Source: Microcoleus sp. (GTDB lineage: Bacteria > Cyanobacteriota > Cyanobacteriia > Cyanobacteriales > Microcoleaceae). Taken from it: DNA of 64,000 nt. Each line of letters starts with the position of its first letter. The first letter of the stretch is position 1. The notes under the pieces were generated by a model. It saw nothing but the letters and a program-made list of their open reading frames with translations. It was not told the DNA's origin and ran no database searches. Location of the stretch: positions 448,001 through 512,000 of the forward strand of contig JAYFMW010000030.1 in assembly GCA_042408215.1 (NCBI GenBank), read 5' to 3'. Shown piece by piece: positions 10,513-57,132 of the stretch. The translations under genes were made by a program, and so were the position numbers.

Positions 10513-11961
10513 CGAAAAACGAGCCCGGCGTGCCCCTGGCTTTTAGACATGGGGAGGAAGTCGGTAGCGGTTTCAACCGCCTTCTATATTTTTTTTGGTA
10601 TTGGTTGTTTTGTAGTCATATTTGCATCTTCAATCAAGAATACTATGCTAATATAAACCAAGGAGGAAAACAGAATGTATGGATGCCAGCAAAATCTAAT
10701 TAGTCCAGACAAAGACTTAAAAGCAGTCTTAGAATTCTTGTGTAGTGAAGCCTCAAAGTTAATTAATTGTGGAACTTATTATGCCAGACAACTATTCTTC
10801 AAAACTGGAAGGATACCGAGTAGAGCCAAGCTACATAAAGTTTTAGGAACGGACAATCGAAACATTCATTATAAGGCTTTCTATTCAGATACCGCACAGC
10901 AGATACTGACTAGCATTGCTGAATCTTTCCAATCCTATTTGGGCTTGCTAGCTGGAATCAAAGAAGGGACAGTGACGCAACATCCAAGACTTCCTGGATA
11001 CAGACAAGGCGGATTAGCACTTGTAACTTTTACAGGTAGATCGGTCAAATTAAAAGATGGAATGTTGCGATTTCCTTTAGGGAAGCAAGTTAAAGCTTGG
11101 TTTGGCATAGATGCGTTCTATCTGACGATGCCATCTAACTTAGAATATGCTTCTATTCGAGAGTACAGAATTTTACCCAGAAACGGATGTTTTTATCTAG
11201 AATTGGTTGACCAAAAAGAAGCTGTTCAATCCGATGTCAACGTTGATTCTGTATTGATGATCGACCACGGGATGGACAACTGGATAACTTGTGTCAGCAA
11301 TATTGGAACTTCATTCATCGTAGACGGAAGGCATCTCAAGTCCATCAACCAAGGCTACAACAAACGAGTGGCAACCTTGAAGTCGGTCAAAAACAATGGA
11401 TTCTGGTCGAAAAGACTGGAACGGCTGACCGAAAGCAGAAATAGAACAATGCGGGATGCAGTTAATAAAGCTGCTCGTAAGGTCGTCAATCATTGTGTAT
11501 CATCCAAGATTGGTACAGTCATATTTGGATGGAACAAGAATCAGAAAGATTCAATAAATCTGGGTACAAAGACCAATCAAAAATTTGTTCAGATTCCCAC
11601 GGGCAGGTTAAAAGATAGAATTGCTCAACTCTGCGAACAGTCCGGAATCAAATTCGTCGAAACCGAAGAATCATATACTTCAAAAACTTCTTTTCTCGAT
11701 GCCGATCCACTGCCTAAAATCGGCGAAAAACCCGAGGGGTGGAAAGCTTCGGGAACGAGAATTAAACGTGGATTATATCGGACGGGGAAGGGGTGGCTAA
11801 TTAATGCAGATTGCAATGGTTGTGCAAATATTGGCCGTAAAGTAGCAACAATACTTGGACTCGATCTAAGTGGAGTTGGTAGAGGTGACTTGTCAGCACC
11901 TGTAAGACTTAAATTGTGGAATACATGAATCCCCACGCCTTTAGGCATGGGGAGATGTCAA
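10513..11961 (+). mobile_element. Non-autonomous IS200/IS605-family element (tnpB only)
   Basis: Left-end hairpin CCCCTGGCTTTTAGACATGGGG after TCAC; right end GAATCCCCACGCCTTTAGGCATGGGGAGATGTCAA; no TSD; no tnpA. Confidence 0.85.
10675..11928 (+). CDS. tnpB: RNA-guided endonuclease TnpB (zinc-finger-less cyanobacterial type)
   Basis: RuvC-I MIDHG, IFGWN at the usual RuvC-II position, ETEESYTSK, RIKRGLY, RuvC-III INADCNG. Confidence 0.93.
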   Translation: MYGCQQNLISPDKDLKAVLEFLCSEASKLINCGTYYARQLFFKTGRIPSRAKLHKVLGTDNRNIHYKAFYSDTAQQILTSIAESFQSYLGLLAGIKEGTVTQHPRLPGYRQGGLALVTFTGRSVKLKDGMLRFPLGKQVKAWFGIDAFYLTMPSNLEYASIREYRILPRNGCFYLELVDQKEAVQSDVNVDSVLMIDHGMDNWITCVSNIGTSFIVDGRHLKSINQGYNKRVATLKSVKNNGFWSKRLERLTESRNRTMRDAVNKAARKVVNHCVSSKIGTVIFGWNKNQKDSINLGTKTNQKFVQIPTGRLKDRIAQLCEQSGIKFVETEESYTSKTSFLDADPLPKIGEKPEGWKASGTRIKRGLYRTGKGWLINADCNGCANIGRKVATILGLDLSGVGRGDLSAPVRLKLWNT

Positions 11962-14200: not shown

Positions 14201-14277
<77 letters not shown>

Positions 14278-14351: not shown

Positions 14352-14428
<77 letters not shown>

Positions 14429-25030: not shown

Positions 25031-25404
25031 AAAAAATACTCGGTAAGTGGGAAACTCAGAGTTTTTAGACCTGAGAGGAAAACGACTTGGCGGTTTTAAC
25101 CGCCTTGAATCCCCTCCGGCGAGGGGTGGAGGGGTATGGTTGCCCCTCCGGTGAGGTATGGTTGCCTCGATCTCCCTTGCGGGGTAATGTTAGCTTCGCC
25201 AATGTTATAAGAGCTTTTTAGACCTGCAACACTGCCTCAGTGACTTTAAGACTGTTTAATTGCAGATGACAGGGCTCTTTACTAGCTTCGCATCCACAGG
25301 GTGTCATGACTCAAATAACGTAGACCTCTAAGGTCTTAGGCTGGTCAGCACAGCTTGCTCGATCGCTCTAACAAGCTCAGTCCCTTTAGGGCTGAGTTAC
25401 TGAC
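25031..25404 (-). mobile_element. Protein-free IscB-type IS200/IS605 mini-element
   Basis: Minus strand starts GTCAGTAAC plus hairpin and ends TTCCTCTCAG...CTGAGTTTCC...TTTTTT immediately before ATGA of chlB; removal restores AGGAAAAATACCT-ATG. Confidence 0.85.
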
Positions 25405-54063: not shown

Positions 54064-55247
54064 ATGCATTTAGTGATAGTTCAGTATGCAGTCGATTACC
54101 GAGAAGCCTATGAGCAGCTAAAGGTGGCCGTGAAACATACTACGCTCAAAAATATTCTGTTGATACCGTTACCGAGATGGGGAAACGAGTTGAGTCAGTA
54201 GCGGTGATTTGTGCATGACCTCCAGAACCTTACAATCAGGTTCTAGAAAACGGGGTACGGGCGATAGGTGCAGGATTTAATCAACAATTGAAGGTTCAAG
54301 AATTAATCGAGTTAATAGCGCAGCAAAATCCAACTCATCTCGTCATGCGCACACCTGTTAGAGAAGTTTTTAATTGGGCTATCACAAATAAAGTTAGAAC
54401 GATCGCGACCTTTGCCGAATCTTTTTTTACAACCACTTGGCGCAATAAAATCCGCAACTATGTACTTGCTAAGTTATTGAATAACAAGCAAATAGAATGG
54501 GTTGGTACTTACGGTCTTACTTCTTCCCTACTCTTCCAAGAAATCGGAGTTAAACCTAATACAATCATGCCTTGGGATTTTCTCATAGATAGTGACCCAG
54601 GCTCTTTGCCACCCAAAGAACCACCAGATAGCGTCAAAAGTTTGAAATTATTTTAGGCTGGTTTGTTAATACAAAGTAAGGGGGTTGGTGATATTTTAGA
54701 AGCGGTAGCAAAGTTGAAAGACCAGAATATATCAGTGCATTTAAAACGGGCTGGTAAAGGCGAAGAAGAGTTTTTGACCTAGCGAGTGGAACAGTTGCAA
54801 ATTCAAGATTCTGTAGAGTTTCTCGGAATAGTGCCAACTCAGACTTTAGAACCTTTAATGAGAGAAGCTGATCTTGTCCTAGTTACTAGCAGGCACGAAT
54901 ATCCAGAGGGTTTTCCCCTGACAATTCAGCACGCTTTGCGGACGAGAACGCCGATCGTAGCTTCGGATCGCCCGATGTTTACAACCCACTTGCACCCCGG
55001 CGCTAATGCCATGATTTTTGAGGCTGGGAACTCTTAGGCTTTAGCAGAATGTATTGAAAAACTGGTTTCCGATGCACCGCTTTACCGCAATATTTCTCTA
55101 GGTTCTCATGCAACGTGGCATCAGTTGCGTCTGCCCGTCAAAGGGGTACAACTGATCGATCGCTGGCTGGATGATGCTCCTGAAAGCAAACAGTGGTTAT
55201 TTGAACAACGACTAGCTTCTGGGGCCTACAACTCAAGACCAAGTTAA
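54064..55247 (+). pseudogene. GT4-type glycosyltransferase pseudogene
   Basis: MHLVIVQYA.DYREA start, SRHEYPEGFPL motif; several frameshifts and TAG stops at 54654 and 55035. Confidence 0.85.
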
Positions 55248-55275
55248 TAATTAGGTCGCTCTAATTAAACTTGAG

Positions 55276-55466
55276 TAGGACTTACAGCATATTCCATGTA
55301 TATGTGGTACACACAAGAAGAGAGACGCGAGTAAGGTGCGTTACCACCCGTCAATCTGCAATCTTTATCAAATATGAAGCCGCGACGCACCCTACCGATT
55401 AAGACCACATAATATAGCTGCTACTGTACTTCATGAACCACCGAATATGCTGTATATCTAGTCCTA
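55276..55466. mobile_element. MITE-like element (AGGACTTACAGCATATTC / GAATATGCTGTA..AGTCCT) with internal REP-like unit
   Basis: Inverted ends. Confidence 0.6.
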
Positions 55467-55576
55467 AGCTTTTGTGCATTTAAATTGAATGTAAAAAAAT
55501 AATCTAAGTCTTGTGGGGAGTAGGGGTTGGGCGTCTCGCCCGCCCTGAATATGCAATTTAAATGCGTGACAGCTTA
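55465..55576. mobile_element. MITE with TAAGCT....GCATTTAAATTG TIR
   Basis: Inverted ends; abuts the truncation point of the minus-strand glycosyltransferase. Confidence 0.7.
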
Positions 55577-55654
55577 TCATATAACCCCTTTGCGGACGCA
55601 GGCATAACCGAGGAAAAGGACGTTAATTTCCTCTGAGGGCGGTTTGTGGGATTG

Positions 55655-55943
55655 TTGACACTCCCCGGTCTGAAGACGCGGGGATTCTTAAGGACAAACA
55701 TTGGGGGATGAATCCGCCCAAAGTTGAATGCTTAAAGGGTAAGTCAGATACCCACTACCCACTCGCTCATGACTGAGTCTATGGCTACTTTTTTGCCTAA
55801 CGGCTTGCAACTGTCGGGTTTTTCACCAACTAAGTTTCAACAACTTTATCAAACCAAAATCAGTTTGTCAAGATGGGCAGGATAAATCCTGCAACGCCCT
55901 TTCATCCCTGGACTAAAGTCGCAGGGTTTTCAGGGTATTTCTT
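55655..55943 (-). mobile_element. 289-bp protein-free IS605 mini-element (left end, promoter, omega-RNA, right end)
   Basis: Inserted after TTAT without TSD; left-end hairpin CCCTGCGACTTTAGTCCAGGG; right end GAATCCCCGCGTCTTCAGACCGGGGAGTGTCAA. Confidence 0.9.
55843..55871 (-). promoter_or_regulatory. Sigma70-type promoter inside the mini-element
   Basis: TTGACA-17 bp-TAAAGT with extended TG. Confidence 0.7.
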
Positions 55944-57132
55944 ATAATTGGGGAAATGCTCTGGCGACCAACCTTCAGTCGTTAAAAGCAGTTTCTCTTC
56001 AGAAACTCCGGCTTGTTGAAAGGATTTTACTACTGTCGGACTAGGACAAAACAGAAAGTCAGCTACCTTAAGTTCTTGCTCTTCCTTCTGAATTTTTTCT
56101 GGGGTAATGTCGTGTTGAGGTTGCAATCCCAAGCGAGAGTAAGCATCGTCAAGGATACTCTTAGCTTGCCTTTGACAAGTATTAACTCGCTCCAAAAAAA
56201 TCGGCTTGTTGTGCTTGTTAACGCTCTTGACAGTATCAGATGAGGTACCGGGCCACAAGTAGGCAACATCAAAATCTTTGAGATCTTTGAGAAAACGCTT
56301 CTCTGCCTTGATTTTGGGAAGAGTAGGGCTACAGTAATACAGTTTTTTCAGAAATGACGGAATTGCTTCAAGCATATTGGAGCCGCGGCACGAGCAATCG
56401 CAACTCGGGACAACCATGCGAGCATTCAGCTCAGAGTTGTGCCATTCTTTGCACACTGAAAAAAATACGTGGCTAATGGCTCGGTCACTGCAATGAATTG
56501 GGAATAAAGCACTCAGTTTTAACATAGCATTAATCTTCTATTAACTAGAGTTTTTCGGTTTTTATCTAAACATTGACATTGGACAGTGATGCTCAGTTTG
56601 CAGAGCAGTCTCGTTTTATTTAAAAGCAGATTCCGTAACCTGAATGTGATTGTATTCTGCAAGTATAACACTTCAGTAAAATCACTGACAAGACCCTGAG
56701 AAAAAACTATGTATTTTGGCTGTAAATGATTAAAGTGTAGCAGCCAAAACGCAGTTAAAATTTTTTAACTATGTTTAGCGTCCTAATTAATAGGGGTTTT
56801 CAACCCTGTGTTCTAACTGAGTGATTGAAATTTCTGCTACACATAGTCTCCTCCGGGATATTACTGACTAAAAAAACTGACCGGGTGTTAAGCCAGGATT
56901 TGGTAAGTAAGCCCACGTAAAAAAACAGAATACCCAGCACCCCGACTTCGCAGTTGTCGGGACTCTAAAAGCGATCGGATTTTACGTTTAATTAAAGCGA
57001 CTTGCCGATCATTACCTTGTAAAGGGCGTTGTGGATCAAAAAAACATCGAAAAAAAACATCGAAAAAAAACATCATAGCTGCTTTTCTGAAAAAACAGCT
57101 AGGATGTTTTAATGACAAGCTATTTCAGGACT

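Follow-up and report, generated by a model that had tools for sequence, protein, structure and literature searches.

Among the closest described relatives of the locus studied here are the palindrome-associated transposable elements (PATEs) of Haloquadratum walsbyi. In the sections of Dyall-Smith et al. (2011, PMC3119063) available to us, these have no terminal inverted repeats, carry palindromes near their ends, insert without duplication at a target of 4-6 nt, leave no room for a transposase, derive from IS605-type elements by deletion of the core and form "homogeneous" families of >90% identity. Here we describe an element with the same traits in a cyanobacterium. It lies in a 64,000-nt stretch of Microcoleus sp. 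DNA (the window), that is, positions 448,001 to 512,000 of contig C30 (JAYFMW010000030.1) of the genome that we call G000 (7.36 Mb, 30 contigs); coordinates below are window positions unless a contig is named. This mini-element, found within a glycosyltransferase gene, differs from the H. walsbyi PATEs, as those sections present them, in its bacterial (cyanobacterial) host, and also in how its core was lost: the two palindromes were not simply fused through repeats, since the middle still holds a diverged piece of tnpB. According to the same source, one H. walsbyi element, HqIRS71, also has a longer terminal segment in which C-terminal coding sequence is preserved.

A second body of work concerns RNA. 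According to the Discussion of Meers et al. (2023, 10.1101/2023.03.14.532601), PATEs "often encode" omega RNAs that would need TnpB in trans, and Altae-Tran et al. (2023, PMC10691335) summarise standalone omega RNAs acting in trans from Altae-Tran et al. (2021). Like the elements portrayed in these accounts, the mini-element has been mobilised, encodes neither effector nor transposase, has its scaffold at the element boundary and coexists with effector-bearing copies in the same genome; it would likewise be expected to use TnpB in trans. What sets it apart from the standalone omega RNAs, as they are summarised there, is a near-consensus sigma-70 promoter-like site in a tnpB-derived spacer, together with the existence of two mini families having one scaffold boundary and of a sharp synonymous-site boundary in the parents. 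An earlier note on this DNA, made from the sequence, had contrasted the mini-element with plain end-only PATEs. As a novelty this contrast does not stand, because the literature already knows both omega-RNA PATEs and standalone omega RNAs with action in trans, at least in the parts of these two 2023 papers that we could consult; the central idea of the note was right in kind, and not new.

The TnpA/TnpB system of the IS200/IS605 family, in the portions of Meers et al. (2023) accessible to us, shares with our locus a tetranucleotide target that is also the target-adjacent motif (TAM), a right end in TCAA, subterminal hairpins, a donor joint without a scar and a guide that derives from the right flank. 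In contrast to that system, the mini-element has neither tnpA nor tnpB, and its cognate TnpB has a glycine at the RuvC-II position and no zinc-finger cysteines. Closer in host, the cyanobacterial miniature inverted-repeat transposable element Nezha (Zhou et al., 2008, as reviewed in PMC3184786) is also small and non-autonomous, with mobility recognised from filled and empty sites; in the review's account, Nezha ends in inverted repeats and is flanked by direct ones, whereas the mini-element has neither. In the openly readable literature, a search turned up nothing on such minis in Microcoleus-type cyanobacteria and no description of a dedicated promoter in an omega-RNA PATE.

We consider it very likely that the mini-element is a non-autonomous IS200/IS605 element of the PATE type, which arose by internal deletion from a tnpB-only (IS1341-type) insertion sequence and kept the omega RNA scaffold. 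Its parts and immediate surroundings, in the order in which the minus strand reads, are the following.

55948..56525, minus strand: 5' part of the host gene, a GT4-type glycosyltransferase gene that is now a pseudogene; the open reading frame 55902-56525 runs into the mini-element
55944..55947, minus strand: TTAT target tetranucleotide, the predicted left-end TnpA cleavage site and presumed TAM of the cognate TnpB
55872..55943, minus strand: left end (element positions 1-72), with hairpins CCCTG..CAGGG (~55906-55926) and GCAGGAT..ATCCTGC (~55877-55892)
55843..55871, minus strand: sigma-70-like promoter match, TTGACA-17 nt-TAAAGT with TGn, predicted start ~55835-55837
55794..55842, minus strand: leader, a diverged tnpB coding remnant (part encoding ..VGEKPDNWQP..), with 22/24 bases matching a full-length copy
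55655..55793, minus strand: right end, presumed omega RNA scaffold of 139 nt, corresponding to the final 106 nt of tnpB and a further 33 nt
55638..55654, minus strand: candidate guide flank of 16-17 nt (CAATCCCACAAACCGCC), directly after the right end

The insertion is precise. On the minus strand, the 289 bp of the mini-element (55655-55943) start with AAGAAATACCCT at 55943, right behind TTAT (55947-55944), and end with GGGGAGTGTCAA at 55655, and the 3' flank CAATCCCACAAACCGCC occupies 55654-55638. With slashes at the boundaries, the order is ...CCCCAATTAT / AAGAAATACCCT ... GGGGAGTGTCAA / CAATCCCACAAACCGCC... We queried 30 related genomes with window 55000-56700, and nine of them, all of the same genus (L032-L040), had the orthologous glycosyltransferase gene. 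All nine loci were empty: ...CCCAATTAT joins CAA(T/A)(C/T)CC... directly, with no element and no target duplication, TTAT is retained, and the base following ...AATTAT is the one that follows the mini-element in the window. An environmental contig of 811 nt (run X14) was empty as well, with 55654 joined straight to 55944 and exactly 55655-55943 absent. These sites bear out what the earlier note had read from the sequence, namely, an exact insertion after TTAT without target-site duplication, and the limits that it gave to the 289-bp element are identical to ours. It had added that removal restores the host frame. Indeed, excision in silico gave a 223-codon frame across the junction, and the L032 orthologue of the interrupted gene is open over 379 codons, via ...EHFPNY/QTHKPPSEE...

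As a separate observation on the host gene, two further small repeats (~55465-55576 and ~55283-55454) replace the downstream (3') part of the glycosyltransferase pseudogene. The former, of ~112 bp, is common in many genomes of the genus, and the latter, of ~172 bp, has about six matches in its own genome, window copy counted.

A BLAST of the region against its own genome returned 113 matching segments, among which several families of elements could be told apart. The form found in the window, hereafter miniA, was present in 16 copies of 289-295 bp with 89.6-100% identity. A second form, miniB, was present in 14 copies of 298-299 bp; it has left and right segments as in miniA and, because its middle is unrelated, overall identity to miniA is only 74-76%. 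Further members were four elements of 318-321 bp, a single one of 481 bp and the full-length parents, 31 copies of 1446-1616 bp with tnpB as their only gene. TTAT stands immediately before 16/16 miniA, 14/14 miniB, 30/31 full-length copies and 4/4 elements of 318-321 bp; the GTCAA terminus is found in all 30 miniA and miniB copies, and the flanks of all family copies are unique to each copy. The miniA copy at C21:25109-25401 shows a single-base difference from the window copy, and therefore the mini form moved recently, as a unit. The earlier note had suspected that the mini form is itself mobile and had proposed to look for near-identical copies after TTAT elsewhere; both the suspicion and the search turned out well founded. 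The opposite case, also raised there, was a single remnant produced by deletion in situ that was never mobile as a mini. We see virtually no chance for it, with nothing found in its favour, with 16 copies of the same internal structure in 16 different flanks, one of them a single base off, and with the orthologous site empty in nine of nine relatives. The mini-specific middle was present in 5 of 60 other genomes of the genus, weakly in one of these five, and the miniA family is young.

Alignment with the long elements divided the mini-element into three parts, the first ~70 nt of the parent, a ~80-nt middle and the parent's final 139 nt. The left end is 95-100% identical to most full-length tnpB elements and 83-91% identical to a few diverged ones, and folds as single-stranded DNA into two hairpins (-13 kcal/mol, z = -3.45). 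The right end, with 86-92% identity to its counterpart in most full-length copies, carries the TnpA hairpin CCCCG..CGGGG (~55663-55683) and the terminal TCAA. Near-identical hairpins are therefore found at both ends, CCCTG-CGAC-TTTA-GTC-CAGGG lying 17 nt from the left terminus and CCCCG-CGTC-TTCA-GAC-CGGGG lying 8 nt from the right one. There are no terminal inverted repeats, as AAGAAATACC... and ...GGAGTGTCAA are not inverted copies of each other. Two hairpins at the left end, and at the right end one that is like the first of them, make up the IS200/IS605 arrangement. Insertion 3' of a fixed tetranucleotide, absence of duplication and of terminal inverted repeats, and subterminal hairpins are the features of that family, and those of a PATE are present too: the element is too short for a transposase, derives from an IS605-type element and exists in 16 copies. 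Its longest internal frame has 40 codons and runs through the remnant of the TnpB C-terminus.

Only 24-30 nt of the middle, in its 3' half, could be traced to tnpB. The leader's 22/24-base match sits ~260 nt from the right end of a full-length copy, and a 16-nt exact match to the leader occurs at eight other genomic places, at least six of them within full-length copies. The leader is also the least variable stretch among miniA copies (nucleotide diversity, pi, of 0.016). For the promoter-bearing 5' half of the middle, no source was detectable elsewhere in G000.

The parents tell more about what was kept. In 15 of the 31 full-length elements, the frame stays open for 430 codons or more; it spans 405-413 codons in another 10 and is broken in 6. 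Together with the TTAT junctions reported above, these complete frames provide the TnpB that the earlier note had proposed to identify. A 431-aa TnpB (P0001) matched Pfam OrfB_IS605 (61.5 bits) and Cas12f1-like_TNB (32.9 bits); its relatives, with 83-88% identity, are in Microcoleus, Kamptonema and other Oscillatoriales (17 of 18 loci; the remaining one, in Vibrio, was spurious), which makes a filamentous cyanobacterium of that group the most likely host. Comparison of 13 intact copies (78 pairs) revealed purifying selection, with a median ratio of nonsynonymous to synonymous polymorphism (pN/pS) of 0.13 and a median pS of 0.43. In the same 13 copies, four-fold degenerate sites of codons 396-431 showed 0/1378 pairwise differences, as against 0.23-0.36 for codons 1-395. 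Synonymous differences are frequent up to codon 396 and end at codon 397 (TCA AAA GTA GCC...), 141 nt from the right end; past it, only a few positions vary. This indicates that the last ~140 nt of the parents carry a nucleotide-constrained function other than coding for protein. The segment kept by both miniA and miniB starts at this very boundary, within a few nt (AAAGTAGCCATAGACTCA). As the alignments read, the minis retain the whole constrained unit and hardly anything beyond.

Recognition by TnpA, as established for IS608, needs just the terminal hairpin region. A guide-RNA scaffold is therefore the best explanation for the extra ~100 nt. The layout is that of an omega RNA locus, with the scaffold at the 3' end of tnpB and the right end of the element, abutting the boundary, and the guide drawn from the flank. 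Structural support is modest: a consensus fold of 38 distinct right ends had 37 pairs, with 98.8% of cells paired, and its covariation score was 0.066 as compared with 0.047 in column shuffles, none of 500 of which reached 0.066.

The window itself contains an intact tnpB (10675-11928, plus strand; 417 aa, with the OrfB_IS605 and TNB domains). It is not the partner of the mini-element: it belongs to another lineage, occurs once in the genome and reaches no more than about 70% DNA identity with any second locus. The actual parents are located beyond the window. The earlier note had aligned the scaffold with the 3' end of this gene, at 11839-11961. The collinearity holds; the gene fails as a cognate comparator for the reason just given. 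We observed that its right end, ...GGGGAGATGTCAAT, resembles that of the mini-element.

The sequence that would serve as guide also follows TTAT in the empty orthologues, with 0-3 differences in eight of the nine and more in L033. The statement of the earlier note that the predicted guide matches the empty site is true, but it is so by construction for any IS200/IS605 right-end flank. When TTAT plus guide was searched genome-wide with up to two mismatches, the sole match was the occupied junction, with TCAA in place of TTAT: the TCAA terminus of the right end makes the occupied site differ at two positions from TTAT plus flank. The occupied site would be safe from TnpB because TCAA replaces TTAT. 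On the scaffold side, we noticed that its 5' part (~55760-55775, minus strand) occurs in two forms, ..TGAGCGAGTG.. and ..CTCGCTGTGTG.., which are roughly mutual reverse complements. Both are found among miniA copies, and some right ends of the family outside the minis have the CTCGCTGTGTG form as well, a pattern suggesting that copies have exchanged sequence or that a short piece was flipped.

What could transcribe the scaffold? The TTGACA-17-TAAAGT site pointing to the right end, which the earlier note had put forward, is present as stated. TTGACA occupies 55871-55866 and TAAAGT 55848-55843, the latter preceded by TGn, with 10/12 matches to the consensus. A near-consensus promoter with an extended -10 box is expected to be active with the primary sigma factor. 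A start ~7 nt past the -10 box would give ~182 nt of element RNA plus the guide, near the 200 nt anticipated in the earlier note. The -35 box is intact in 16/16 miniA copies, and the -10 box reads TAAAGT in 9, TCAAGT in 2 and TCGAGT in 5. We lean slightly toward this internal TTGACA-17-TGnTAAAGT site as the RNA source in the window copy.

A possibility is that the guide RNA is functional, as in our preferred explanation, and stems solely from read-through of host promoters; the two differ only in the source of the transcript. We hold this to be a serious possibility without favouring it. The window copy is co-oriented with the host glycosyltransferase gene, miniB has spread without a consensus promoter, and a 121-nt contig from run X14 spans the promoter region with a depth similar to that of downstream contigs. 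In contrast, the near-consensus boxes of the window copy would be expected to fire, and in a crude spanning-frame test 8/16 miniA copies looked intergenic and 2 lay opposite to the spanning frame. As a test of orientation, the same counts (6 copies on the same strand, 2 opposite, 8 intergenic) are biased, because the complement of TTAT contains the TAA stop codon, and they were not used as evidence.

RNA data consisted of assembled Logan contigs from four metatranscriptome-type runs, which may contain DNA and give no start, end, strand or level. Contigs from three of the four runs covered the mini-specific middle, which is a weak hint only. Summed contig depth was far higher on the element than on its flanks (8124 versus about 8 in X14); this contrast, too, is only a weak hint because the element is multi-copy and common to many organisms. 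A 178-nt contig of run X15 ending at 55832 looks like a transcript with its start near the predicted one, but was rejected as such: copies differ at 55833, which makes an assembly bubble the likelier cause of the break. In the same run, a 735-nt contig joins the right-end terminus to a left end (window 55655/55940) with three letters between. It could be a head-to-tail pair or the junction of an excised circle of a related environmental copy. A pattern search of G000 allowing up to 12 nt between ends found as the only close arrangement a right end, 3 nt, TTAT and a left end, at C8:96191.

Several observations weigh against the mini-element being a carrier of a working guide RNA that moves with the help of TnpA and TnpB. 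Covariation in the scaffold is weak, as both-side changes occurred in 2 of 37 pairs and were equalled in 112/500 shuffles. No Rfam family covered the mini-element at gathering score, and extending the search to E values of 10 brought two chance snoRNA hits only. The promoter scan found 2 such sites in 1 kb against 1.6 +/- 1.1 in shuffles, and the motif alone is no better than chance, because shuffles yield as many sites. The -10 hexamer lacks the A at position 2 in 7/16 miniA copies; diversity of the promoter stretch among them is 0.052, not below that elsewhere, and gives no sign of purifying selection in a family too young to decide. In miniB, none of the 14 copies has a consensus promoter, and the family spread all the same. 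The RNA-library contigs carry no start, strand or level, and no intact tnpA was found between TTAT-type ends anywhere in G000. Finally, the RuvC-II glutamate position of TnpB is a G (LVFGWNK), and no solved structure matched P0001 by sequence at E <= 0.001. Because of the glycine and the lack of a structure match, nuclease activity is assumed here from the literature on rearranged clades. Large TnpB clades with that glutamate replaced and a compensating glutamate predicted are mentioned in the sections of Altae-Tran et al. (2023, PMC10691335) open to us, and P0001 probably belongs to such a "rearranged" clade.

The degenerate -10 boxes and the promoter scan would also fit another reading, in which the mini-element is a mobile PATE with an inert RNA: TnpA alone moves it, the long right end is an accident of deletion and the promoter a chance product of the tnpB remnant. 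As a matter of fact, the 318-321-bp elements have only ~40 nt in common with the miniA right end, yet they reached four copies after TTAT, and PATEs of 52 bp made of termini only seem still to move, as far as the available text of Dyall-Smith et al. (2011, PMC3119063) indicates. However, two families with unrelated middles retain the same 139 nt, whose left limit is the end of synonymous variation in tnpB, and the two scaffold-bearing families have 16 and 14 copies versus 4 for the family without this scaffold. The modest requirement of TnpA, noted above for IS608, argues in the same direction. On balance, we regard an inert RNA as improbable and keep to a PATE-type element that has retained its omega RNA scaffold.

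Under this preferred explanation, movement would follow the model of IS608 and ISDra2, with a Y1 TnpA acting in trans and recognising the subterminal hairpins, which are nearly identical at the two ends. Top-strand cuts by this TnpA, behind TTAT on the left and behind TCAA on the right, would release a single-stranded circle, to be pasted after another TTAT without duplication. Transcription through the 139-nt right end into the flank, from the internal promoter and/or by read-through of the same-orientation glycosyltransferase gene in the window copy, would produce an RNA made of scaffold and a 16-nt guide. An intact 431-aa TnpB from full-length copies may bind this RNA. On excision of the mini-element, TnpB would cut the TTAT-flanked donor joint, and recombination with another chromosome copy would restore the mini-element.

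With respect to the transposase, G000 contains 20 Y1_Tnp matches, of which 11 cover the full model with no stop. In the parents of the 1548-bp class, ~70 nt are left of the 3' end of a tnpA in divergent orientation; in translation, this remnant is closest to the TnpA at C1:21234. The right-end foot (CTTAAGAATCCCCG..CGGGGAGTGTCAA) of the element at C1:21234 is the same and its left end is collinear, but the sequence in common starts with CTAT. Mobilisation in trans by a relative such as this TnpA is plausible. Beside this, we observed about 115 loci in G000 with the terminal module CTTAAGAATCCCCG-loop-CGGGGAGTGTCAA (e.g., C5:345032, C6:423249, C6:849497, C20:265480), with at least five or six unrelated scaffolds upstream of it (47 clusters at 93% identity). 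A single right-end recognition module thus seems to be common to many IS605-type families, some of which apparently have no genes. One TnpA copy, at C20:33421-33771, has DPVH instead of the HUH-type DHVH of its relatives and is probably inactive.

Elsewhere in the window, positions 25184-25404 (minus strand) match the Rfam HEARO RNA (RF02033) over its full length with 135.7 bits. HEARO RNA accompanies HNH/IsrB-type nucleases of the OMEGA (obligate mobile element-guided activity) class, and the window would then contain another guide-RNA system, unrelated to that of the mini-element. Two tRNA genes at 14201-14274 and 14352-14425 (plus strand), 151 bp apart, are identical in alignments, with the anticodon loop CUCAUAA and 63.3 bits each.

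The current picture of IS200/IS605 biology is unchanged by these data. The locus contributes a neat case in which the scaffold is sharply bounded, with a candidate self-promoter of tnpB origin and natural promoter variants (TAAAGT, TCAAGT, TCGAGT). In one genome, 30 scaffold-bearing minis in two families stand beside four relatives without this scaffold, at least 15 full-length tnpB copies with a complete frame and a clear TTAT TAM, which makes a clean natural case for asking whether guide-RNA-only mini-transposons use TnpB in trans. The synonymous-site boundary in tnpB is, besides, a simple way of delimiting an omega RNA scaffold from sequence alone. A further idea, which we put forward only tentatively and think rather unlikely, is that a protein-less lineage evolved a strong promoter of its own from a leftover piece of tnpB, made its guide RNA without host transcription and so parasitised the TnpA and TnpB of its relatives. 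If this were true, selection would be acting on a selfish element reduced to a guide RNA, and the many chromosome copies of each filamentous cyanobacterial cell would offer a ready repair template for TnpB homing.

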